From an uncultured delta proteobacterium (GTDB lineage Bacteria; Myxococcota_A; Polyangia; Polyangiales; Houyiibacteriaceae), in contig CAVOVB010000001.1 of the NCBI GenBank assembly GCA_963699755.1, forward strand, positions 1,664,001 through 1,728,000: a DNA stretch of 64,000 bases, written 5' to 3'. Every line of letters starts with the position of its first letter. Position 1 is the first letter of the stretch. A model generated the notes under the pieces. It searched no databases. It saw only the letters and a program-made list of their open reading frames with translations, and was not told the origin of the DNA. The position numbers and the translations under genes are program-made. Positions 1 through 24,621 of this stretch are shown piece after piece.

Positions 1-26
1 CCATGGGGGTCGAGTTAGCCGACTAA
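1..26 (+). CDS. rplK: 50S ribosomal protein L11, 3' end only (partial)
   Basis: atg ggg gtc gag tta gcc gac taa = MGVELAD*, resembling the L11 C-terminus (SMGxEV); directly upstream of rplA. Confidence 0.75.
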
Positions 27-77
27 CTCTGCGGAGCGATTGATTTCGCTCACCTGGACCACCCAGGCACCCAGTTG

Positions 78-112
78 GTGGTAGGCGGCTTCGAGTCGCC
101 GCAAGGAGTCAC
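78..112 (+). promoter_or_regulatory. Putative L1-binding autoregulatory stem-loop covering the rplA Shine-Dalgarno
   Basis: GTGG-TA-GGCGGC-ttcga-GTCGCC-GCAAGGAG-TCAC: two stems separated by a purine-rich internal loop that contains AAGGAG, immediately before the ATG at 114. Confidence 0.5.
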
Positions 113-113
113 G

Positions 114-812
114 ATGAAACCCGGAAAAAAGCGCGCGGGCGCATTACAGTTGCCCGACAAAAGCCAGCGCTACGCGTTGAGGGAAGCCGTCTCGCTCGTG
201 AAGGAGTTGGCGTTCGCCAGCTTTGACGAGTCGGTCGATGTTGCCGTTCGGCTTGGTGTCGATCCGAAGCACGCGGACCAAATGGTTCGTGGCGCTGTCG
301 TCTTGCCTCACGGGACGGGAAAGACCAATCGCGTTCTGGTTTTTGCGAAAGGCGAGAAGGTGAGCGAAGCGGAGGAAGCCGGCGCCGATTTCGTCGGTGG
401 TGATGATCTGGTCGCCAAGATTACCGAGGGCTGGCTCGATTTCGACACCGTCATCGCCACTCCGGACATGATGGGGCAGGTTGGCCGTCTCGGTCGCGTC
501 CTCGGTCCTCGTGGCCTCATGCCGAACCCCAAGGTCGGCACCGTGACCTTCGACGTGAGCAAGGCCGTTCGCGAGGCCAAGGCCGGCAAGGTCGAGTTCC
601 GCGTCGAAAAGGCGGGCATCGTCCATGCACAGGTGGGCAAGAAATCCTTTGGTGTGTCCGAGCTCGCGGGCAACGTGAAGTCGCTGGTGGGCGCGCTCGT
701 GAAGGCCAAGCCGGCCGCCGCCAAGGGGACCTACCTTCGAAGCATCACCTTGAGCTCCACGATGGGCCCCGGGATCAAGATTGACCCCGGAACCATCGAG
801 GTGGAGGCGTAA
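114..812 (+). CDS. rplA: 50S ribosomal protein L1
   Basis: [48 protein letters not shown] aaggag before ATG 114. Confidence 0.98.
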
Positions 813-814
813 TC

Positions 815-1384
815 ATGAGGCTTACACGAGAAGACAAAGCGGCGCAGGCCGTCTCGGTCCGCGAGAGCTTCGCGAACGCGACAGCGACTGTCCTCGTCGA
901 TTTTCGTGGCGTGAACGTCGAGCTCATCACGGATTTGCGCGCTCGTTTCCGCGACGCCGGTGTCGAGTACAAAGTCGTCAAGAACAACGTCGTTCGAAAA
1001 GCACTGGAAGGTTCCGAGCTCGCCGACAACGACGAGTTCACGGCCCATCTAACTGGGCCAACGGCGATCGCCTGGAGCTTCGAAGATCCTTCGGCTGCGG
1101 CCAAGGTGATCAAGAACTTCCGTAAGGAGCACACCGACGTCCTTCAGCCCAAGGACGGAAACGCCAAGCTCCTCGTCAAGTGCGGCCTTCTCGAGGGCCA
1201 AGTTTTGGACGCGACGCGCGTCGAAAAAGAGCTCGCCTCGCTTCCGGGCAAGGATGAGATTCGTGCCTCGCTACTCGCGCAGCTCATGGCGCCCATGCAG
1301 AACCTGGTCGGCCAAATCAATGCACCGGCCCAAAACCTCGCTCTCGTTCTCGATGCGTACCGGCGCAAAGAGGCAGGCGAGTAA
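815..1384 (+). CDS. rplJ: 50S ribosomal protein L10
   Basis: VDFRGVNV..LRARFR..YKVVKN, LTGPTAIA, LASLPGKDE; position between rplA and rplL. Confidence 0.96.
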   Translation: MRLTREDKAAQAVSVRESFANATATVLVDFRGVNVELITDLRARFRDAGVEYKVVKNNVVRKALEGSELADNDEFTAHLTGPTAIAWSFEDPSAAAKVIKNFRKEHTDVLQPKDGNAKLLVKCGLLEGQVLDATRVEKELASLPGKDEIRASLLAQLMAPMQNLVGQINAPAQNLALVLDAYRRKEAGE

Positions 1385-1435
1385 CCCAACAACAACTTTA
1401 GCCGTGTCGCACGCACGGTTAGCGGAGAGTCAAGA

Positions 1436-1819
1436 ATGCCAAATATGAATGTGGAACAGATGGTCGAAGAGCTCAGCTCCTGGACTGTCATGGAAGTTGC
1501 AAACCTGGTCAAAGAGCTCGAAGAGAAGTGGGGCGTTTCGGCAGCACCGGCAGCGGTGGCCGTAGCGGGACCTGCCGGCGGCGGCGCTGCAGAGGCGGCC
1601 GAAGAGCAGACCGAGTTCGACGTCGAGCTGAGCGAAGCGGGTGCCAAGAAGATCAACGTGATCAAGGCCATCCGTGAGATCACTCAGCTCGGCTTGGCGG
1701 ACGCCAAGGCTTTGGTGGAAGCAGCTCCCAAAGTCGTCAAAGAGGCCGTTTCCAAAGAAGAGGCCGAAGAAATCAAAAAGAAGCTCGAAGAAGCTGGCGC
1801 GAAGGTCACCGTCAAATAA
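1436..1819 (+). CDS. rplL: 50S ribosomal protein L7/L12
   Basis: [51 protein letters not shown]. Confidence 0.98.
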
Positions 1820-1835
1820 CCCTATGGGGTTATTT
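1814..1835 (+). terminator. Hairpin overlapping the rplL stop codon (possible terminator or attenuator)
   Basis: AAATAACCC-tatg-GGGTTATTT, a 9-bp inverted repeat. Confidence 0.4.
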
Positions 1836-1856
1836 CTCGGAGCCCTGTGTCGCGAC

Positions 1857-1884
1857 TTGACACATGGTTCGGTCGAGTTAGGTT
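1857..1884 (+). promoter_or_regulatory. Putative sigma70-type promoter for rpoBC
   Basis: TTGACA (1857-1862), 16 nt spacer, TAGGTT (1879-1884). Confidence 0.5.
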
Positions 1885-2033
1885 CTCGGCCGGGGCAGCA
1901 CCGGTTCGCGCAGCGCAGCATTCATGACTTTCCGCAACACGGCGGGAGGCCCAAGGGTCTCCTTGTCGTGCACTTGTCTCTTAATTCTTGGCTTTAGGGT
2001 TCCAGCAGCAGTGGTTCGGTAGGAGTCTCTCTC

Positions 2034-10385
<8,352 letters not shown>

Positions 10386-10400
10386 GCTCTCACCACTTTG

Positions 10401-11547
10401 GTGAAGAGCTATCTATTCGAAACGGACGAGCATCGCGCGCTGCGTGAACAGGTGCGGCGGTTCGCGGCTTCCGCGATCGCGCCGCACGCGCATGATTGGG
10501 AAGAAGCCAACGAATTCCCTCGCGAGCTCTATCAGCAGTCTGCGGCGGCCGGCTTCTTGGGGACGGGGTATCCCGAGGAGTTGGGCGGTGACGGCGGGGA
10601 CTTGAGCCACGTCCTGGTGGCCGCTGAAGAAATGGTGATCGCCGGGAAGTCGGTGGGGACCTGCGTGGGGCTCGGCAGCCACGGCATCGCCCTGCCGCCG
10701 ATCGTGAAGTTCGGGACACGACGCGCAGAAGGAGCGCTACGTTCGACCCACGCTACGCGGTGACAAGGTTTCCGCGCTGGGCATCACCGAGCCGGGCGGC
10801 GGAAGCGACGTCGCGGCGGTGACGACCAAGGCGGTCCGCGACGGAGACCATTACATCGTAAACGGTGCCAAGACGTTCATCACGTCCGGCACGCGCGCGG
10901 ACTTCGTGACCACCGCGGTGCGAACGGGCGGCGAGGGTCATGGCGGCATTTCGATGCTGATCATCGACAGCGACGCCCCGGGCTTCAGCGTGGCCGGCAA
11001 GCTCAAGAAGACCGGCTGGTGGGCCAGCGACACGGCCGAGCTCGCGTTCGAGGACTGCCGCGTGCCGGTGGAGAATCTCATCGGTCAGGAGGGCGCTGGC
11101 TTCCTGATGATCATGACCAACTTCGTCACCGAGCGCCTCATGCTCGCCGGCCAGTGTGTTGCGATCGCCGAGCTCGCCTATCGTGAGTCGGTCGCGTACG
11201 CCAAGCAGCGACACGCGTTCGGCAAGTCCCTATCGGGCTTTCAGGTGGTCCGGCACAAGCTCGCCGACATGGCGACCGACATCGCGGCCGCACGTGCGCT
11301 CACTGGGGAATGTGTCACGCGCTTCCTCAATGGAGAGCAAACGCCGTCCTTGGCGGCGATGGCCAAGAACACGGCAACCGACATGTGCTCGCGGGTCTGC
11401 GACCAGGCGGTTCAAATCCACGGTGGATACGGCTACATGCGCGAGTACGTCGTAGAGCGCCTCTACCGCGATGCACGCCTCTATCCGATCGGCGGTGGCA
11501 CCCGCGAGATCATGAACGAAATCATCAGCAAGGTCGAAGGCTACTAG
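10401..11547 (+). CDS. Acyl-CoA dehydrogenase (one apparent +1 frameshift at ~10718)
   Basis: N-terminal part YPEELGG; re-framed QKERYVRPTLRGDKVSALGITEPGGGSDV; NGAKTFIT, QIHGGYGYMREY, YRDARLYPIGGGTREIM. Confidence 0.92.
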
Positions 11548-12269
11548 GAAGGGGGGCGAGAACGCCCTCCAATGATGAAGTCCGCGATGATGGCGGAAAG
11601 CTTTTCTACGAAGGCTGGGCCGATTTCGGTGTGGTGCTGGGCGGCGATGCGTTGGACCGACTCTGCGACGGTTTCATCGGCGCGTTTCCAGGCATCGAGG
11701 AGGTCGGCCGCCAAGGCGTTCAGCGCTTTGGTCGAGGCTCGGTGCTCGGCATCCCGGTAGACACACAGGACGGTTCTATGGGGCTCGTACCCTGCGGCCG
11801 GCGTGGGCTTCTTCTGGACCGGATACTCGAGGCGGATGACCTCGAGCGCAGCACTGAGCACCGGCCTTCGGTCGAACGCGAACTCCGATTCGGGTTTTGG
11901 GTCCCGGGGTGCGTGCCGCACGTTCCAGCTGGCGATCTCGAAGCGCGCCAGCTCCGCCACCCAGGGTGCTTCCTGACCTTGCCAGATTGGAATCGCGAAA
12001 TCTGCCAGCTCGACGGGCACGTAGCGCAAGTATCGGGTTTTGGGTCCGCCCGTGCTCAGCCACTCGGAGACAGCACGACCAAACGCCTCGTCTCCGAGCG
12101 CCGCTTTGGTGCGAGCGAGGGCGACGCTGATCACCTGGACGAGCCTGTTCTGCACCAGCTCTCGATACACCAGCCATCGCTCGCGCGATCCCAGAAGCTC
12201 GAGGTCGGCTTCACTCGGTTCGGCGTCGAAGCAAACACGCTGCATGGCTTTGGCGCGATCAGCGAGCAT
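11544..12269 (-). CDS. DUF2063-like (HvfC/BufC-type) MNIO partner protein, putative RiPP recognition
   Basis: RWLVYRELVQNRL, F..AVSEWL..GPKTRYL, WVAELARFE, LEYPV; overlaps the DUF692 gene (coupled); ATG at 12269. Confidence 0.78.
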   Translation of the reverse strand: MLADRAKAMQRVCFDAEPSEADLELLGSRERWLVYRELVQNRLVQVISVALARTKAALGDEAFGRAVSEWLSTGGPKTRYLRYVPVELADFAIPIWQGQEAPWVAELARFEIASWNVRHAPRDPKPESEFAFDRRPVLSAALEVIRLEYPVQKKPTPAAGYEPHRTVLCVYRDAEHRASTKALNALAADLLDAWKRADETVAESVQRIAAQHHTEIGPAFVEKLSAIIADFIIGGRSRPPS

Positions 12270-13125
12270 GTCCGTCTTCCGTCGCGCGCCGATAGATCTT
12301 CCAGAGCTCATCGACCTCGGCCAACAGCTCGTCCAGTGGTGGCACGTTGTTGTCCCGCTCGAGCAGGACTGGCACGGGACCGATCTTTCGCAGCGTGTAG
12401 TCCAGGAGTTGATAGACGTCGTTCGGCACGGGTTCGCCATGGGTATCGATGCGAAGTCCGTCGTCGCGAATGAAATGACCCGCGACGTGGATTTGCACTA
12501 CGCGATCGGGCGGAATCTTGTCGATGTAGGCTTTGGGATCGAAGTCGAAGTTTCGACCGTTGACGTAGATGTTGTTGACGTCCAAGAGCAGCTTCGCATC
12601 TGCGCGTTCCAGCACCTCGACCACGAAATCGGCCTCGGCCAATCCATCCTCGCATTGCGGCGCGTAGTAGCTCGCGTTCTCCAAAGCCAGAGGCAGGTCG
12701 ATCGCGTCTCTCACTTCGATCAATCGTTGGGATGCGATTTGCGCCGCCTCGTCGGTGAACGGAAGCGGAAGCAAGTCGTGAAAGAAGCGATCTTCGACGC
12801 CCCCGAGACATAGGTGCTCGCTGTGCCAAGGAACCTCGACGTCAGACAGGAACGACCGCAGCTCCCGGAGGTAGCTGGCGTCGAATGGCTCGGGCGCGCC
12901 GAGGCAGGTGCTGAGCCCGTGGGTGACGATGGGCCAATCTTGCCGCGCGAGGTCCAGCATCTCCTGGTAACGGCCGCCTCGATTGACGTAGTTCTCCGGG
13001 TGAATTTCCAGCCACGAGACCGCTTCCGGCCGGCGTTCGAGCAGCTCGGTTGCAAGGTCGTAGCGCAAGCCGAGGCCGATTCCATTTACCCTGCTCTTCA
13101 CCTCAGCACTGATGTTTCGACTCAT
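12259..13125 (-). CDS. DUF692 family multinuclear non-heme iron-dependent oxidative enzyme (MNIO, HvfB/BufB-like)
   Basis: GLGLR, LEIHPENY, HGLS, SEHL, DLLPLP, LENASYY, LLDVNNIYVN, QIHVAGH, IDTHG, LLERD motifs. Confidence 0.95.
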   Translation of the reverse strand: MSRNISAEVKSRVNGIGLGLRYDLATELLERRPEAVSWLEIHPENYVNRGGRYQEMLDLARQDWPIVTHGLSTCLGAPEPFDASYLRELRSFLSDVEVPWHSEHLCLGGVEDRFFHDLLPLPFTDEAAQIASQRLIEVRDAIDLPLALENASYYAPQCEDGLAEADFVVEVLERADAKLLLDVNNIYVNGRNFDFDPKAYIDKIPPDRVVQIHVAGHFIRDDGLRIDTHGEPVPNDVYQLLDYTLRKIGPVPVLLERDNNVPPLDELLAEVDELWKIYRRATEDGHAR

Positions 13126-13135
13126 GCGGGTCCCG

Positions 13136-13175
13136 AAAAAAGACGAGCCGCGGCGACCAGTGCCGCCGCGGCTCG
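13136..13175 (-). terminator. Rho-independent terminator between the precursor and the MNIO gene
   Basis: Minus strand CGAGCCGCGGCG-gcactggt-CGCCGCGGCTCG-tcTTTTTT: perfect 12-bp stem followed by a U-run. Confidence 0.8.
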
Positions 13176-13221
13176 AAATACCGTGCTGCCCTTTTCGGGG
13201 CAGCTCGACGCGCGTGGACTG

Positions 13222-13463
13222 TTACTTCGCGCCGCCGCAGCTGCCTTCGCCGCAGGAAGCTTCTGCCGCGTCGCCTGCCTTTTCGGCAGCGTCGTCTTTC
13301 GCTCCACCGCAGCTGCCTTCGCCGCAGGAGGCTTCGGCCGCGCGGTCTCGGCGCCTGTCGTCGCCTCGGAGGCTTCCGGACCAGCGTCCGACTTGCATCC
13401 GGCCGTCACACTGAGTGCCGCAGTCGCCATCGCGATGATCGTGTGCTTGAGTGCTGAGTTCAT
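13222..13463 (-). CDS. Cys-repeat RiPP precursor lipoprotein (oxazolin/HvfA-like), ~80 aa after correcting one frameshift at ~13341
   Basis: MNSALKHTIIAMATAALSVTAG-C signal/lipobox, then in the shifted frame AEASCGEGSCGGAKDDAAEKAGDAAEASCGEGSCGGAK*; SD-like agagggt; directly upstream of DUF692. Confidence 0.85.
13235..13329. repeat. 23-bp direct repeat encoding the two SCGEGSCG cores
   Basis: ccgcagctgccttcgccgcagga at 13235-13257 and 13307-13329. Confidence 0.9.
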
Positions 13464-13729
13464 GTTTGTCTACCCTCTATTTGTTCGTAAGAGCATCGGG
13501 AGCATTGAAGCCGCTCCCCGGTGATGCAACGCGGCGTCAGGGACCAATCCCATGCCCCCGCTTCCCATGAAGGCACGCTAGCCAAAGCGATCGTGGGTCG
13601 CAATCTAAAAGCGAAGCGTGCGTCATGACATGCTCTACGTCCGTCGCGCCTAGATGTTTCGCCTGAATCGTGACGTCAGCCCACTGGCGATTTGCGTCGA
13701 ATACACCATAGATTTTCAGGACTTAGATC

Positions 13730-15116
13730 GTGTTGAACATCGGAAAGCTTGCAGGGTTGATTTGCCTCGTTTCCTGCGCTCACGGAGCGGATCGCGCTCC
13801 GATCGAGCCGCATTCGGGTGGGGTCGCTCACTACACGGTTACAATCTTTGACAACCTCGGCGGTGCTCGCGTTCGCGCATGCTTTTCCGGCTTGGCTTTG
13901 GCGGCGTTGGTTCCCATGGATAGGAGCGCTGCGAGGCAACTGCGGGGCGCTTGGATCGATGGCATCCCGCTCGAGACCCGTGACGGTCGAATCTTGCTCA
14001 GTCAGCAGTCCCGGCACATGTGCCTGGAGTACGAAACCCAGTTCGAAACGAGCCGGTTTGGGCTCGAGGATTCATCGGCTGTGGTCCTTTCGCAGAGCCA
14101 GTGGCTCTGGCGGCCCGAACCGTTTCCCCCGCAGGTCAACACCTCGGTTCGTTTCGCGGTTCCGGGCGACGGACAGGTATCGTTGGCATGGCCACGCTCT
14201 GACGGCGCATACCAGCCGAACCGAAATGCCTTCTTCGTCGAGACGTTTGGCGTCTTTGGGGCCTTCGACCTGCAGGCGTTCTCGGTCGCCAACACGCGTG
14301 TCGAAGTCGCACGTCTCGGGGCTACGCCACTCGACCGGGACGTTCGCCGCTGGCTCACTCGGGCGGTTCAGACCACTGCGTCGGTGGGCGGGCGATTCCC
14401 CAGTGACCGTCTTCAGTTCGTCATCGTCCCCGTTGACGACCCAGGCGCCGAGGTCGCCTTTGGGATGGTGCGACGGGGCGGTGGCTCGTCCATTCTTCTG
14501 CTTCCGTCCGTCCATGCCCAAGTGGTCGAGCTCGAGGCGGATTGGGTGGCCATTCATGAGCTCTCGCACCTCTGGCTGCCGCGGTTGCACGCCAAAGACC
14601 GCTGGCTCTCCGAGGGGATTGCGACCTATCTCCAGGAGGTGCTCCGCGCTCGATGTGGCCTGCAGAGCAGCGACCGCGCTTGGAGCCGCATCCGCGAAGG
14701 CTTCGAGCGCGGCCGGCGTTCCGGCGACCGCGCAACCCCTCGCCGATGAGAGCCGGAGCATGAACCGGACTGGAGCCTACCAACGTGTGTACTGGGCAGG
14801 CACCGCGTTCGCGCTCGAAATCGATCTCCGGCTTCGTCGCCTCAGCAATGGAGAGAGCACGCTCCTCACCGTGCTCAACGATGCGCAGCACAATTGGCGA
14901 GAAGAGGCCCGCTTGGTCAGCGCATCGCGCGTCCTTGCGGCACTCGAAAAGGCAAGCGGGGTAGACTTCATCGCGGCGCTCGGCGACCGGTATGCCGCAA
15001 GCTCCGATTTCCCCGACACGAGCTATGCAGATTCGCCCGAATACGACGAACTTCGCGCTCAGATCAGCGCGCAAGTCGATGGAAGCTGCACGGTCAGCGG
15101 CGAATCGTCGCGATGA
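13730..15116 (+). CDS. Putative lipoprotein gluzincin metallopeptidase (M61/MA-like); apparent +1 frameshift at ~14726
   Basis: LICLVSC lipobox-like; HELSH followed by WLSEGIATY; continues in the other frame with YQRVYWAGTAFALEIDLRLR. Confidence 0.75.
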
Positions 15117-16425
15117 TCCGATCCCGAGGGGTAGGGCGGCGGTTTGCAATTCCAATTGCTGAAGCGGCGCGGTTGGCGCCTGGCCCTAGCAACGCAACGC
15201 GCGACGCATACAAGGTGGCTAGCGCGTCACCCTCCCGGACTTGGTCGCCGCGACGCACGTGCAATCGGATCCCGGCTCCCCAGTCTACCGCGTCCTCGGA
15301 ACGGCGGCGGCCTGCGCCCAGACCCATCGATGCATACCCGAGCTCGAGGGGATCCAGCTCCGCGACGTAGCCAGCTTTGGTCGCACGAATGGTCGACCGG
15401 TGACGCGCAAGCGGGAGTCGATCGGGTGCGTCCACCACGGCAGGATCGCCGCCTTGTGCGGCGACGATTTGCCGCATCTTCTCGAGGGCGCTTCCGTTTT
15501 TGACGGCTAGCTCGACGCGTCGTCGTGCCTGGGCCTTGGTTTTTGCGACGCCCGCGGCCCGCAGCATCTCGACCGCGAGCTCGTAGCTCAGGTGCCGCAG
15601 ATCGTCGGGCCCTTCTCCGTGGAGAATTTCGAGCGCCTCGCTGGTTTCGAGCGCATTCCCGATCGTGTAGCCAATAGGGCTGTTCATGTCGGTCAGGAGC
15701 GCGGAGACCCGTTTGCCAGCGAGGCTTCCAACGCGCACCAAAGATCGCGCCAGCGCCCTCGCATCCGACACGGTCTTCATGAACGCGCCGCGACCGACTT
15801 TTACATCCAATACCAGCGCGTCGATTCCCTCCGCCAGCTTCTTCGACAGAATGCTCGAGGTGATCAGGGGAATCGATTCGACCGTTCCGGTGACGTCCCT
15901 CAGTGCGTAGAGACGCTTGTCGGCCGGTGCTAGGTCGCCGGTTTGCCCGATCAGCGCGCAACCGATCTTTCGGAGTTGAGCACGGAACTCCCGCACCGAA
16001 AGATCGACCCGAAATCCGGGAATCGCTTCGAGCTTGTCGAGTGTGCCTCCTGTATGTCCAAGGCCTCGACCGCTCATCATGGGTACCGCCACCCCGCAGG
16101 CCGCGACGATCGGTGCGAGGCAGATGCTGACCTTGTCTCCGACGCCGCCCGTCGAGTGCTTGTCCACCTTGGGAGCATCGAGCTCGTCGAGGCTCAGGAC
16201 TGTGCCGCTGTCTCGCATGGCGAGGGTCATCGCGACCGTCTCGTCGAAGTCCATGCCCCGAAAATAGATCGCCATCGCCAGGGCGCTCATCTGGTAGTCA
16301 GCGACCGAGCCGTTCATGAAGCCGGCGATCAGAGCACGGATGTCCTCATCGCTGAGCCTGTTTCCCTCACGTTTGCGAGCGATCAACTCCGGGACGGCCA
16401 GAAGGTGTCGCTTCGTTCGAGCCAT
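15094..16425 (-). CDS. pdp: Thymidine / pyrimidine-nucleoside phosphorylase
   Basis: DKHSTGGVGDK, SGRGLGHTGGTLDKLEAIPG, LAPADKRLYALRDVTGTV, SILSKKLAEG. Confidence 0.95.
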   Translation of the reverse strand: MARTKRHLLAVPELIARKREGNRLSDEDIRALIAGFMNGSVADYQMSALAMAIYFRGMDFDETVAMTLAMRDSGTVLSLDELDAPKVDKHSTGGVGDKVSICLAPIVAACGVAVPMMSGRGLGHTGGTLDKLEAIPGFRVDLSVREFRAQLRKIGCALIGQTGDLAPADKRLYALRDVTGTVESIPLITSSILSKKLAEGIDALVLDVKVGRGAFMKTVSDARALARSLVRVGSLAGKRVSALLTDMNSPIGYTIGNALETSEALEILHGEGPDDLRHLSYELAVEMLRAAGVAKTKAQARRRVELAVKNGSALEKMRQIVAAQGGDPAVVDAPDRLPLARHRSTIRATKAGYVAELDPLELGYASMGLGAGRRRSEDAVDWGAGIRLHVRRGDQVREGDALATLYASRVALLGPGANRAASAIGIANRRPTPRDRIIATIRR

Positions 16426-18878
16426 CACTTCCGTCGTGTGCGCCGCGGCCGTTTCCTGGGTTCGGCGCTCTGCGTCTTCGAATCGTCGCGCACTTTTTTC
16501 GGTTGCCTGCCCCGTCTCTTTGAAGGGCCGGTCCGCTTCCCCGGCGCCGCCTTCCCTTCTTGGCGCGCATCGCCACGCTTCTTGGGCGCTCGGCCGCGCT
16601 CTTTGCCGCCGCTGCGTTGCATCCTGCGGACCTGTGTCGGCGCCTCCGCGGGCTGGTGCTCCAGCAGGGAGCCAATGACATCCCTAGCCTGGACATTGGC
16701 GTCCTCGATCCGCACTCTGACCGGATCGTTCATCGTGAAGATCTTCGCCGTCCTCGCTCCGATCAAGCGAATGCCCAAGTCGTCTGGTTCGTAACGATCT
16801 TCGAGTTGCTCGAACGGCAGCAGGACGCTCACGAAAGGATCTGCGATCTGAATGTAGATGCCAAAGGGCGCAAAGCCCGAGATTCGCCCCTCGAACTCGT
16901 CTCCGATGTGCTTCTGCATGTAGATGGTCCGGTAGACGTCCATCACATCGCGCTCCACGATCATCGCGCGGCGTTCGGATTCGCTCGCTTGTGCGGCAAA
17001 TCGCTGAAGGCGCGGCCGAAGTGAAGCCGAGTCGAGGCTTTCGTTCCGAATCATGCTCCGAAGGACGCGATGGACCAGTAAGTCCGGATATCGTCGGATC
17101 GGAGACGTGAAGTGCAGATAGTCCTTCGCCGCGAGGGCGAAGTGACCGGTGGTCGGGTCGGTGTCGTAAATCGCTTGCTGCATGGCTCGCAAGAGCAGGT
17201 ATCGGAGCAGCGAGGCTTCGTCCGTGCCTTCGATTCGACGAAGGAACTGGCTGAGCTGCTTTGGAGTCGATGCAGCCTCTTCTTCGAGCTCGTAGCCGAA
17301 GGACTTCGCGACCTGGCAGAACATCGAGATCCGCTCCGGGTCGGGCTTGCCATGGACTCGAAACACGCCGGGCGCACCGTGCCGCTTGATGTGCGCAGCA
17401 ACGGTTTCGTTGGTCACCAGCATCATGTCCTCGACGATGCGGTATGCTTGTCGAATGCCTGGGTCTTTGCGGGACTGGACGATTTCCTTGGGCTCTCCGT
17501 GCTCGTCCAGGACGATCTTCCCCTCCGGAAGGTCGAAATCGAGCGAGCCGCGTTTCTGTCGGCGAGCTCGAAGCCGCTGCGAAAGATCGAGGAGGATTTT
17601 GAGGGTCTCGACCCGCTTTTCGGCCGAGGGCTGATGCGGGCCCTTGTCGGTGAGGCGGAGCGCGCGAGCCACGCCCTCGTAGTAGAGCTTCCCGTGCGAA
17701 CGCATCACGGCTTCGAAGATGCGATGGGAGCCCATATGCCCCTTCTCGTCGATGTGCATTTCGACCGCCATACAGAGGCGGTCGCGGTTCGGCACGAGCG
17801 ACGCAAGATTGGTCGAGAGCTCGGGTGGCAGCATTGGGATCGCGCGGTCCGGCAGATAGACGCTCGTGCCTCGGCTGATCGCTTCGCGGTCCATCGGGCT
17901 GCCTTCGATGACGTAGTGAGATACGTCTGCGATCGCGACGATGAGACGGAAGCCGTTTCGTGTGCGCTCGACCCAGATCGCGTCGTCGTGGTCGCGCGCG
18001 GTTTCCGGGTCGATCGTGACGAGATCGACGTCTCGCAGGTCCTCGCGATTCTTCAGCACTTCCCGGTCCACGCGGGCGGGGAGGGCGGCGGCCTCTAGCT
18101 CGACGTCGTCCGGGAAGACCTCCCGGATCCCGTCGCGGATCTTGATCTTCTCCACCTCGGTCCGTGCGACCCCTTGTGCGCCGAGCACTTCGACGATGCC
18201 CACCTCGGGACGGTCCTCGCTCCGCTGTGGAAACGTGACGATCTCTGCGAGGATGACGTCTCCTTTTCGGACGGACTTCGGGACCTTGCCTACCACGCGC
18301 ATGGGCGAGCGCAGCCGCTCGTCGTCGGGCTCGAAGCTCATCCCCCGGCCGCGCGGGTGCAGCATTCCGGTCACGTTCTTCAGTCGCCGCTCGACGATGC
18401 CGACGATGAGACCTTCTCGGCCTTTCGACGAAGGACGGGCCCTGAGCTGGACCGTGTCCCCATGGAGCGCTGGCCCCACCGCATCGGGCGGAATGAAGAC
18501 GTCGGAGCCTCCGTCGTACACGTTGACGAAGCCATACCCTTGGCGCGTCATCGTCAGCTTGCCCTCGATCACGGGAGTCAGCGGTGCAGCAAGCTGCTGC
18601 CGCTCCTCGGCCTTGCGGCCGCGTCCTCGTGTGGTCTTCGCTTGCTCGCGACCTCGCTTCTTGTTTTTGTCGACAGCGAGCGCACGAAAGCGCAAGCCCG
18701 GCATCTCGGTCACGAGGTTCTCGTCTTCGAGCAACAAAAGGCGCCGGACGATCTCGTCCTTGGCGCTGCGCGGAACATTGAGCCTTCCGCAGAGCTCTCC
18801 AACGTGCATCGCACGGGGAGCGTTTGCCTGCAGAACCTGCAGGATTTCGTTCTTCTCAGGAATTTCTTCGTTCATCAT
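16425..18878 (-). CDS. rnr: Ribonuclease R
   Basis: Cold-shock domains, TIDPETARDHDDA, AIADVS, HFTSPIRRYPDL, S1 domain, K/R-rich tail. Confidence 0.95.
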   Translation of the reverse strand: MMNEEIPEKNEILQVLQANAPRAMHVGELCGRLNVPRSAKDEIVRRLLLLEDENLVTEMPGLRFRALAVDKNKKRGREQAKTTRGRGRKAEERQQLAAPLTPVIEGKLTMTRQGYGFVNVYDGGSDVFIPPDAVGPALHGDTVQLRARPSSKGREGLIVGIVERRLKNVTGMLHPRGRGMSFEPDDERLRSPMRVVGKVPKSVRKGDVILAEIVTFPQRSEDRPEVGIVEVLGAQGVARTEVEKIKIRDGIREVFPDDVELEAAALPARVDREVLKNREDLRDVDLVTIDPETARDHDDAIWVERTRNGFRLIVAIADVSHYVIEGSPMDREAISRGTSVYLPDRAIPMLPPELSTNLASLVPNRDRLCMAVEMHIDEKGHMGSHRIFEAVMRSHGKLYYEGVARALRLTDKGPHQPSAEKRVETLKILLDLSQRLRARRQKRGSLDFDLPEGKIVLDEHGEPKEIVQSRKDPGIRQAYRIVEDMMLVTNETVAAHIKRHGAPGVFRVHGKPDPERISMFCQVAKSFGYELEEEAASTPKQLSQFLRRIEGTDEASLLRYLLLRAMQQAIYDTDPTTGHFALAAKDYLHFTSPIRRYPDLLVHRVLRSMIRNESLDSASLRPRLQRFAAQASESERRAMIVERDVMDVYRTIYMQKHIGDEFEGRISGFAPFGIYIQIADPFVSVLLPFEQLEDRYEPDDLGIRLIGARTAKIFTMNDPVRVRIEDANVQARDVIGSLLEHQPAEAPTQVRRMQRSGGKERGRAPKKRGDARQEGKAAPGKRTGPSKRRGRQPKKVRDDSKTQSAEPRKRPRRTRRK

Positions 18879-18880
18879 TT

Positions 18881-20159
18881 CTATCGCAGGGCGTGAACCC
18901 CGCCGTCATCCGATCCGAAATACAGTGTGCCGTCGGATCCGATCTCCACCGTCGAGTCGACGTCCTGGCCGACGTTGTATCGCCAGAGCACAGAACCGCT
19001 GGGGTCGATGCAGTAGAGAAAATTGTCTTGGGAGCCCACGTAGATGCGACCATCCGCATCGATTCGGGCTGAGGCACGTACTCGACCTCCGGTCGCGACC
19101 TTCCAGCGAAGCGCGCCCGAGGGGCTTATGGCATAGACGTTGCCATCGTACGAGCCGACGACGATCGTGCCGTCTCGAGCGATCGCCGGGGTTGCTCGAA
19201 CCTCGTCGCCGGTCTTGAATTTCCAGCGCACGTCGCCCGTCTCGTCGACTTGAACGATTTCCCCGCGACCCGTGCCCGCGTAGATGTGCCCCTCGTCATC
19301 GACCGACGCCGAGCCCTCGATGGCGCCACCGAGTTGCACCGACCAGGCGAGCGATCCGTCGGGCCGAAGCGCGATCAGCGAACCTTCCGTCGTGCCGATG
19401 ATGACCAGGCGCGTCGGGTGAATTACCGGAGCGCTCCGAACGTGGTCGGCCGTCGGTTTGTGCCAGTGCAGCCGGCCGAGAAGATCGACGGCATAAGCGC
19501 CGTTGGCTACGACGTAGACCCGTCCGTCGGGGCCCAAAGTGGCCGATGCATCCACGACGTCGTGAAGGGGAAGCTTCCAGCGGGGCTGTCCTTGGAGCGA
19601 AAGCGACACGAGCTCTCGCTGGTGCGTTCCAAATATGATCGACGAGCCTGCGACGAGCGCGCTCGGGTAGATCTTTTGCCCCGCCGCGTACCGCCACTTG
19701 AGCGTGCCGTCGGCATTCAACGCGACGAACTGCCCATCGAGCGAACCGATGTAGACGGTGCCATCATTTCCCGCGACAGGTGATGCGAATACGCGGGCGC
19801 CGGTTTGGTAGGTCCATGCCGCCGAGGGCCTCCCTGACGGGCCGCGGTTTTCGCTTCGACCGGTGTGCGCCGCGTCTCCCATGAAGCCGTTGGCGCTTCG
19901 AGATGCTGCGCCCGATTCGAGCGACGTCCGGCCCGACCACCGGTGTCGCAAGCTCAGCGAGTACTTCTTCGACGAAGCGGCACTTCCCTTCATGGCAGAT
20001 TCGATCTGCCCGGCACTCCGCGTCCGACATGCAGGGCGTAGACGGACGCGAGCGGGGACCGCTACAGGCGGCGACCACCAACAGCACGACCAGTGCCAAC
20101 AAGAGTTGCGGGCTGCAGCGCAATGCGCCGACACTATACCATCGCGGATCGATCGTCAC
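18881..20159 (-). CDS. PQQ-like beta-propeller repeat lipoprotein with a Cys-rich N-terminus (apparent +1 frameshift at ~19921; start uncertain)
   Basis: LVVLLVVAAC lipobox, C-x5-C-x5-C-x4-C; repeated W-x-F..SP..DG.IY.GS.DG..YA PQQ-type repeats. Confidence 0.82.
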
Positions 20160-24298: not shown

Positions 24299-24495
24299 GT
24301 CGAAGTAAGGCTTGCATGGAACCATCAAGCGGCCTCGTCGTCGGACGGGGCCGCTTCTCATTGCTGCGTTGCTCCTCGGGCTCGCGCTGCCGCGGGTGTT
24401 TGGGGAGGTGGGGGGCGGGCGTCGCCGTTCGGCTTGTGCTGCCGCGGGTGTTTGGGGGGCAGGTCTTGGGTGGGCTGCGTGGTACGGCTTGTTGA

Positions 24496-24621
24496 CACCG
24501 CCCCGCCCCGCTTACCCCCACCCGTAATCCTCCCTGGCGCGGCGTTCGCTGCGCTCCGCCTTGCCGGCGCATTCGCGCCGGGCTTCGCCCTTCGGGCTCG
24601 CGCTGCCGCCTGCCGGTTGGG
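24496..24621 (+). repeat. Dispersed ~125-bp structured intergenic repeat, copy 1 (partial 3' ends also at ~24377-24405 and ~24438-24458)
   Basis: Shares acccccacccgtaatcctcc and gcgccgggcttcgcccttcgggctcgcgctgccgc with 48750-48870 and 50435-50560(-). Confidence 0.88.

Follow-up and report, generated by a model that had tools for sequence, protein, structure and literature searches.

Gene arrangement of the locus

We describe a small biosynthetic operon in a 64,000-nucleotide stretch of DNA (hereafter the window) from an uncultured delta proteobacterium of the myxococcotal family Houyiibacteriaceae (assembly GCA_963699755.1, contig CAVOVB010000001.1, positions 1,664,001 to 1,728,000; positions below count from the first letter of the window). 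Three genes follow one another on the minus strand: the gene of a small precursor peptide (13463-13222), a maturase of the MNIO (DUF692) family of HvfB/BufB type with 288 amino acids (13125-12259) and a PME1 partner of 241 amino acids with DUF2063 and NGO1945_C domains (12269-11544). Judged from sequence comparison with its relatives, this three-gene operon is real and conserved in an uncultured myxobacterial lineage, and it probably makes a lipid-anchored peptide of the captophorin (oxazolin-type) class with predicted copper binding.

The precursor gene starts with a minus-strand ATG at 13463, preceded by a ribosome binding site-like AGAGGGT (13472-13478, minus strand), and opens MNSALKHTIIAMATAALSVTAGCKSD... 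As reported in the first-pass annotation of this DNA, the open reading frame (ORF) from this start runs on for 113 amino acids (13463-13122), and a second frame carries the repeats, AEASCGEGSCGGAK...AEASCGEGSCGGAK*. This frame contains two EASCGEGSCG decamers (core repeat 1 at 13335-13306, core repeat 2 at 13263-13234) and stops at 13222. The strong terminator followed by DUF692 and DUF2063-like genes, also noted there, is present as well: the gap between precursor and MNIO gene holds an intrinsic-terminator-like hairpin on the minus strand (13175-13144) with 14 pairs, 12 of them G-C, and a T-rich tail, which is kept in all six aligned sequences. Both proteins pass the profile hidden Markov model (HMM) check proposed for them, the MNIO with 303 bits against PF05114 (cut-off 25) and the partner with 34.2 bits against PF09836 (DUF2063; cut-off 27.2) and 41.8 bits against PF22106 (NGO1945_C; cut-off 27). 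The likely start of the partner at 12269 overlaps the MNIO stop, and a 298-amino-acid ORF from 12440 is probably an over-extended version of the same protein. The absence of DoxX or extracytoplasmic function (ECF) sigma factor genes nearby was borne out by genome scans: the single DoxX match (C1:477114) and all 26 TIGR02937 matches lie outside the window (C1:1664001-1728000).

Origin of the frameshift in the precursor gene

In comparison to the related genome G034, in which the precursor is whole at 79 amino acids, the gene is interrupted in the window by two extra bases within a CGCGCG run (13341-13344). The first-pass annotation had proposed a one-base re-framing here; the effect on the frame is indeed that of a +1 shift, but the cause is two extra bases and not a missing one. 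G034 is 98.9% identical over window positions 1-19771 (about 19.8 kb), and all six indels within this segment are extra bases in the window: three in rpoC (8058, 9296, 9398), one in an acyl-CoA dehydrogenase gene (10717), the two-base insertion at about 13343 and one in a peptidase gene (14729). The remaining affected genes are also whole in G034 (rpoC with 1396 amino acids, acyl-CoA dehydrogenase with 382, peptidase with 461). No organism could live with three real frameshifts in rpoC. Since three similar extra bases break this gene, sequence comparison makes it very likely that the break in the precursor is an assembly error as well. Further checks point in the same direction: the precursor lies in one frame in 18 of 19 loci of relatives (one of them cut at a contig start), the 19th locus beginning downstream of it, and contigs from three of four DNA sequencing runs of related strains lack the two bases. 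These runs come from related strains, none being the exact strain, and the best match holds 0.51 of the words. A real frameshift or a recoding event was also considered and is unlikely, given the intact relatives and the extra-base errors in rpoC.

That automated annotation would miss the precursor is true of this assembly only: where the gene is intact in relatives, it is annotated as a hypothetical or low-complexity protein and passes the NF050137 model. The case also illustrates that "hidden" small genes in this assembly can arise from extra-base errors.

The precursor peptide and its maturation enzymes

The HvfA-type repeat model NF050137 (NCBIfam; cut-off 19.5) recognizes both an intact homologue (22.2 bits) and the C-terminal frame from the window (24.3 bits), in agreement with the HMM check suggested for the precursor. 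Neither frame has a Pfam match, DUF2282 included, and the CPACG motif does not occur in the precursor. Among 120 listed of 191 precursor homologues, Ser stands before 430 of 454 scored Cys residues and Lys before only 4. In consequence, the precursor fails a strict Lys-Cys dyad test. It stands outside the strict Lys-Cys subgroup, though not outside the captophorin class, because the enzyme pair FonBC does not need Lys. An orthologous locus of the same lineage (L046) has EAKCG-EGKCG-EGKCG repeats, and an ordinary gammaproteobacterial oxazolin-type precursor (L064) starts with EASCG. In a full-text literature search, no paper on ribosomally made peptides that are modified after translation (RiPPs) with EGSCG, EASCG or SG8-38 was among the matches listed; the supplements of PMC13056109 and PMC13097082 may list the family or EGSCG.

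The N-terminus is a predicted type II signal peptide (13463-13395, minus strand) ending in V-T-A-G before Cys23. Our simple lipobox rule is passed by 117 of the 120 listed homologues, the other three being over-long starts before the same signal, and in 117 the stretch before the Cys is uncharged with Gly or Ala at position -1. The first-pass annotation had considered that homologues might lack the lipobox Cys; Cys23 is invariant in all 31 aligned homologues. Besides, the lipobox of one family member (L202) is a canonical L-A-G-C, and in related small proteins that lack core Cys the N-terminal one is the sole Cys retained. The host genome has four, one and one matches above cut-off for Lgt, LspA and Lnt, respectively. 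After cleavage, the peptide is predicted to be 57 residues long, with 12 acidic and 4 basic ones.

Two further groups of small proteins belong to this context. A conserved 79-amino-acid lipoprotein-like family (G000:C3:219067, L212-L215) has a related signal and EG-rich repeats and no core Cys, and may be a natural negative control or a relic. Stand-alone precursors (L027, L028, L029, L186, L191, L195) lie beside a different acyl-CoA dehydrogenase gene and are presumably modified in trans.

The MNIO contains HGLS, SEHL, LEN, LDVNN, HVAGH, DTH and LERD, which we take to be the metal (iron)-ligand motifs of this enzyme family, and its best match in the PDB is 3BWW (E 7.5e-51). The Asp of LERD matches D249 of FonB, the proposed catalytic base of this enzyme (PMC13097082). 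With 64 bits against a cut-off of 600 in the ChrH model, the enzyme does not belong to the chryseobasin (ChrH/DybH) group.

Distribution

Within the genus, 53 of 54 other genomes match the region, three of them solely in the last 50 bases inside a neighbouring gene, leaving 50 with part of the cluster. We compared 43 loci, 41 of which are myxococcotal; here, the MNIO gene follows the precursor in 36, three are stand-alone precursors and two gave no precursor. Most of these clusters occupy one site, with thymidine phosphorylase/RNase R on one side and acyl-CoA dehydrogenase/rpoC on the other. When 250 other genomes of the class were searched with a precursor profile, it matched in 17 of 18 members of the family, weakly in both members of one other family and in none of the remaining 230. 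The operon has the character of a core gene set that keeps its place near rpoC. The stretch occurs in DNA runs from metagenomes of marine sediment, sediment or estuaries, and with our assignment the range of lipid-anchored captophorins would reach an uncultured sediment lineage of the Myxococcota.

Predicted promoter and candidate regulon

A predicted ECF-sigma-type promoter, GAAAC-N16-CGTA, lies on the minus strand at 13660-13636. The shape AAC...CGT is a signature of ECF promoters. The predicted promoter is conserved in related loci, about 190 nt before the precursor in 34 of 40 and missing in six. A second conserved element, the sigma-70-like TTGCGA-N17-TAGCGT (13603-13575, minus strand), is present in 30 of 40 loci, can be seen in the leader alignment and might be a basal promoter; a sigma-70 consensus scan gave no site, this element being below the scan threshold. 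GAAAC-N16-CGT also stands about 75 nt before most stand-alone precursors, and G044 has it 61 nt ahead of an MNIO gene without a precursor in front. A matrix scan of the window's own genome found a further non-coding site 57 nt before a gene (L095, G000:C2:790457-791674) that we take, from its sequence motifs, to encode an exported MsrA/MsrB fusion (msrAB). The motif precedes msrAB in 28 of 30 loci, and it is the best-conserved spaced 5+3-mer of 306 patterns at the precursor and of 226 at msrAB (median 2); these msrAB loci are the best 30 of 50 matching genomes, were found with a query containing the motif and are kin rather than independent. Taken together, the new element at this locus is a predicted conserved ECF-type promoter common to the precursor, the relocated MNIO gene and msrAB.

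On a genome-wide scale the motif is not enriched, with 65 sites at spacing 16 compared to 58-72 at spacings 14, 15, 17 and 18, and reversed-pattern controls gave site numbers of similar size. Ten genomes together gave 109 matches; of the 60 that we inspected, nine passed the non-coding filter, four of them before precursors, one before an MNIO gene and four before nothing recognisable. The motif was not found within 450 nt in four other genera of the family and two more distant genomes. Likewise, none of 14 inspected sigma-like genes has the motif within 450 nt. One of the ECF sigma genes (L082, G000:C2:321341-321961) is paired with an 87-amino-acid soluble zinc-finger-type anti-sigma factor and preceded by a 66-amino-acid two-helix membrane protein; the genes after it presumably encode an AhpD-type protein and a cation-diffusion transporter. 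The pair resembles the sigma/anti-sigma layout of Neisseria and Haemophilus; we regard it as a candidate regulator, although the motif is missing upstream of it.

We also considered a structured leader RNA and rejected it, as the RNAalifold consensus of 27 leaders is weak, with a covariation of -0.37 and double changes in 2 of 14 pairs, and the three Rfam matches of the leader are all below the gathering score. A GCATC...GATGC hairpin (13527-13493, minus strand) is located just before the ribosome binding site; its stems differ in several relatives by eye, and it is not in the consensus fold. RNA sequencing runs gave small shares and contigs of related strains, and show neither transcription, strand nor level at this locus.

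The common promoter with msrAB is the lead most worth following: it gives a testable motif and bears on whether peptides of this kind chiefly buffer copper or oxidants.

Neighbouring genes and assembly quality

Divergent to the operon lies a gene for an M61-like lipoprotein peptidase (13730-15116, plus strand; weak PF05299 match below cut-off), which is broken by the extra base at 14729. An M61-like peptidase stands beside 26 of the 36 MNIO-linked loci, whereas it is absent in eight with full upstream sequence and two were not assessable. It is therefore a frequent neighbour but dispensable to the cluster.

Other split genes in this assembly are likely errors as well. Single extra bases divide rpoC (window 6192-10385) into three ORFs and the acyl-CoA dehydrogenase (10398-11547) and peptidase genes into two each; one further extra base lies at 19919. 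Relative to G034, a cluster of small indels occupies a short GC-rich intergenic stretch (24440-24515), and the window segment after 39729 is missing from G034.

The assembly has 9% contamination. A region on contig C7 (L068, G000:C7:314000-333000) duplicates the segment from rpoC to RNase R over 19 kb with 78-89% identity and includes an intact second precursor, and C7 also repeats copper ATPases. We rejected the second precursor as a paralogue: since it sits in a whole-region duplicate of 19 kb in an assembly with this contamination, the copy is probably from a second organism in the bin.

Proposed function and alternatives

For the chemistry, lipidation and metal binding we rely on analogy to homologues. 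In the proposed pathway, the MNIO is an iron enzyme that would act with its partner in the cytoplasm and turn the four core Cys into 5-thiooxazoles by oxidation, with a loss of 4 Da per Cys. The modified precursor would then be exported by Sec, receive a diacylglyceryl group on Cys23 and be cleaved and N-acylated to yield the 57-residue acidic lipopeptide, which the host lipoprotein pathway would anchor in the envelope to bind copper there. Judging from its conservation, the hairpin may end most transcripts behind the precursor gene and thereby provide more peptide than enzyme. On the same basis, an ECF sigma factor encoded elsewhere may switch on the operon together with exported MsrAB under metal or oxidative stress.

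Several points weigh against this assignment. All equivalog models of the oxazolin system stay below their cut-offs (HvfA 14.2 bits with a cut-off of 95, HvfB 292.9/360, HvfC 86.8/142), as does BufB with 270/310; HvfB and BufB are the NCBIfam models nearest to the MNIO. We therefore do not file the system as HvfABC orthologues. DoxX, often present in captophorin clusters, is absent from this one. Ser is not among the FonA variants reported in the accessible part of PMC13097082. The residue equivalent to R16 of FonB is Tyr, His or another non-Arg residue in all 33 scored myxococcotal MNIOs, and the one equivalent to F250 is mostly Asn. The lipobox of the precursor has Thr at position -3, where Leu, Val or Ile is usual. 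Finally, copper induction is without support at this locus, since a search around the copper ATPase and cus-like genes gave no copy of the promoter motif.

This last point leads to an alternative with the same chemistry and anchor, in which the main job is oxidant defence and the thiol-bearing rings serve as a surface redox buffer beside exported MsrAB. It would fit the top rank of the motif among the patterns at msrAB and the situation in Neisseria, where the captophorin operon NGO1943-1948 and msrAB are under sigma-E control (PMC2893595), as well as in Haemophilus influenzae, where RpoE2 controls msrAB in the hypochlorite response, plus a DoxX-containing complex (PMC7907618). However, characterised captophorins generally bind copper (PMC13097082), copper and oxidative stress overlap to an extent that co-regulation cannot separate them, the sigma factor behind the motif was not found among the sigma-like genes inspected, and the msrAB loci carry the selection and kinship described above. 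We therefore regard a mainly antioxidant role as possible, albeit rather unlikely. Slightly more doubtful still is a wider version for this marine family, in which an ECF regulon would have just two members, a membrane-tethered, acidic Ser-Cys thiooxazole lipopeptide and exported MsrAB, and leave out the copper-efflux genes. The peptide would be a core-genome surface antioxidant or redox buffer and not a copper sponge, and its maturation would be due to a subclade of MNIOs that has specificity residues of its own. If true, the coupling of captophorin and MsrAB that Neisseria and Haemophilus show would also exist in a distant free-living phylum.

Another modification than 5-thiooxazole, made by the Ser-Cys clade via changed MNIO specificity residues, would explain the prevalence of Ser before the scored Cys, the changes at the R16 and F250 positions throughout the clade and the equivalog scores. 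Yet the R16A, F250A and F250D variants of FonB still formed 5-thiooxazole, and tolerance alone changed (PMC13097082). Moreover, while two gammaproteobacterial MNIOs have RR and ERDF, the myxococcotal enzymes mostly have RY or RH and ERDN; since L046 likewise has RY and ERDN although its repeats are Lys-Cys, these changes mark the myxococcotal clade and do not track Ser, and Ser and Lys are therefore interchangeable within it. A different ring chemistry is thus improbable. We consider it equally improbable that the peptide is exported without lipidation, by signal peptidase I cleavage or with another role of Cys23: the non-canonical Thr and the reliance of the lipobox call on a simple rule would allow it, but the invariance of Cys23, the conserved uncharged stretch with Gly or Ala at -1, the L-A-G-C of L202 and the core-less paralogues that keep solely this Cys argue for the anchor. 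A genuine frameshift in this strain, as a pseudogene or by slipped-strand phase variation, is very improbable. In its favour, the database protein P0114 (one of the 120 listed homologues) shifts frame at nearly the same place, and no run of the exact source strain was found; against it, P0114 appears to carry further shifts, the MNIO and partner genes are intact, and each of the six indels relative to G034 is an extra base.

Comparison with known systems

The lipid-anchored captophorin proposed here has close relatives in the literature. The first-pass annotation had seen its novelty in the lipobox and in Ser for Lys. The former does not hold, as DAG-RiPPs have been named and lipidated oxazolins and bufferins predicted (PMC13056109), and about 16% of Buf2 bufferins are predicted lipoproteins (PMC12452194). 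For the latter, the exchange itself is evident from the homologues, but it is not a novelty: FonBC, which requires two repeats, accepts Ala, Arg or Thr for Lys at position 3 of the 5-mer (PMC13097082), and L046 retains Lys-Cys. Because of the published lipidated oxazolins and this tolerance, the two features do not make a new class. Nevertheless, the operon provides a natural Ser-Cys substrate/enzyme pair for probing the role of Lys in EGKCG.

The best-matching lipidated example is NedA of Neisseria dentiae, which is triacylated, shows a loss of 12 Da over three EGKCG motifs and is proposed for copper capture at the membrane (PMC13056109). Our operon resembles NedABC in its predicted type II signal, repeated ExxCG motifs, MNIO and partner, and has the sequence features of a DAG-RiPP, namely a type II signal with a conserved lipobox Cys (by the simple rule) and host Lgt, LspA and Lnt. 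It differs in its four Ser-Cys motifs in two decamers and its myxobacterial host.

Captophorins were defined from more than 24,000 MNIO-PME1 loci, and all characterised clusters of this kind install 5-thiooxazoles (PMC13097082), to which the oxazolin rings have also been reassigned (10.64898/2026.06.05.730506). Our locus has a PF05114 MNIO, an adjacent DUF2063 PME1 and an exported, Cys-rich precursor in which the 5-mer repeat occurs at least twice. Fontiphorin (FonABC), gonophorin and oxazolin (HvfABC) share with it the MNIO-PME1 pair, the EA.CG-EG.CG decamer and an exported precursor, and the double repeat mirrors the EAKCGEGKCG of FonA, whereas Ser-Cys replaces Lys-Cys, and Tyr or His and Asn replace Arg16 and Phe250 of the MNIO. 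The bufferins Buf1 and Buf2 have a related MNIO and DUF2063 partner, but their precursor families (DUF2282, 6/12-Cys) are not matched by this precursor. Myxococcota have already been listed among MNIO hosts (PMC11626156). Bulbicupramide, a copper-chelator RiPP of marine Microbulbifer, likewise comes from a cluster conserved genus-wide in marine bacteria (PMC12538549); in contrast to our case, its host is gammaproteobacterial, and a lipid anchor is not mentioned in its abstract.

With regard to regulation, the closest parallel is the Neisseria sigma-E regulon, as in both cases a captophorin-type operon, including a partner with NGO1945_C, and msrAB apparently depend on one ECF promoter type. 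In Neisseria, the operon itself contains the genes of the sigma and anti-sigma factors, and its promoter reads GTMAGBWTT/CGTCTAAH (PMC2893595), whereas here the sigma factor would be encoded elsewhere and the predicted promoter is GAAAC-N16-CGT.

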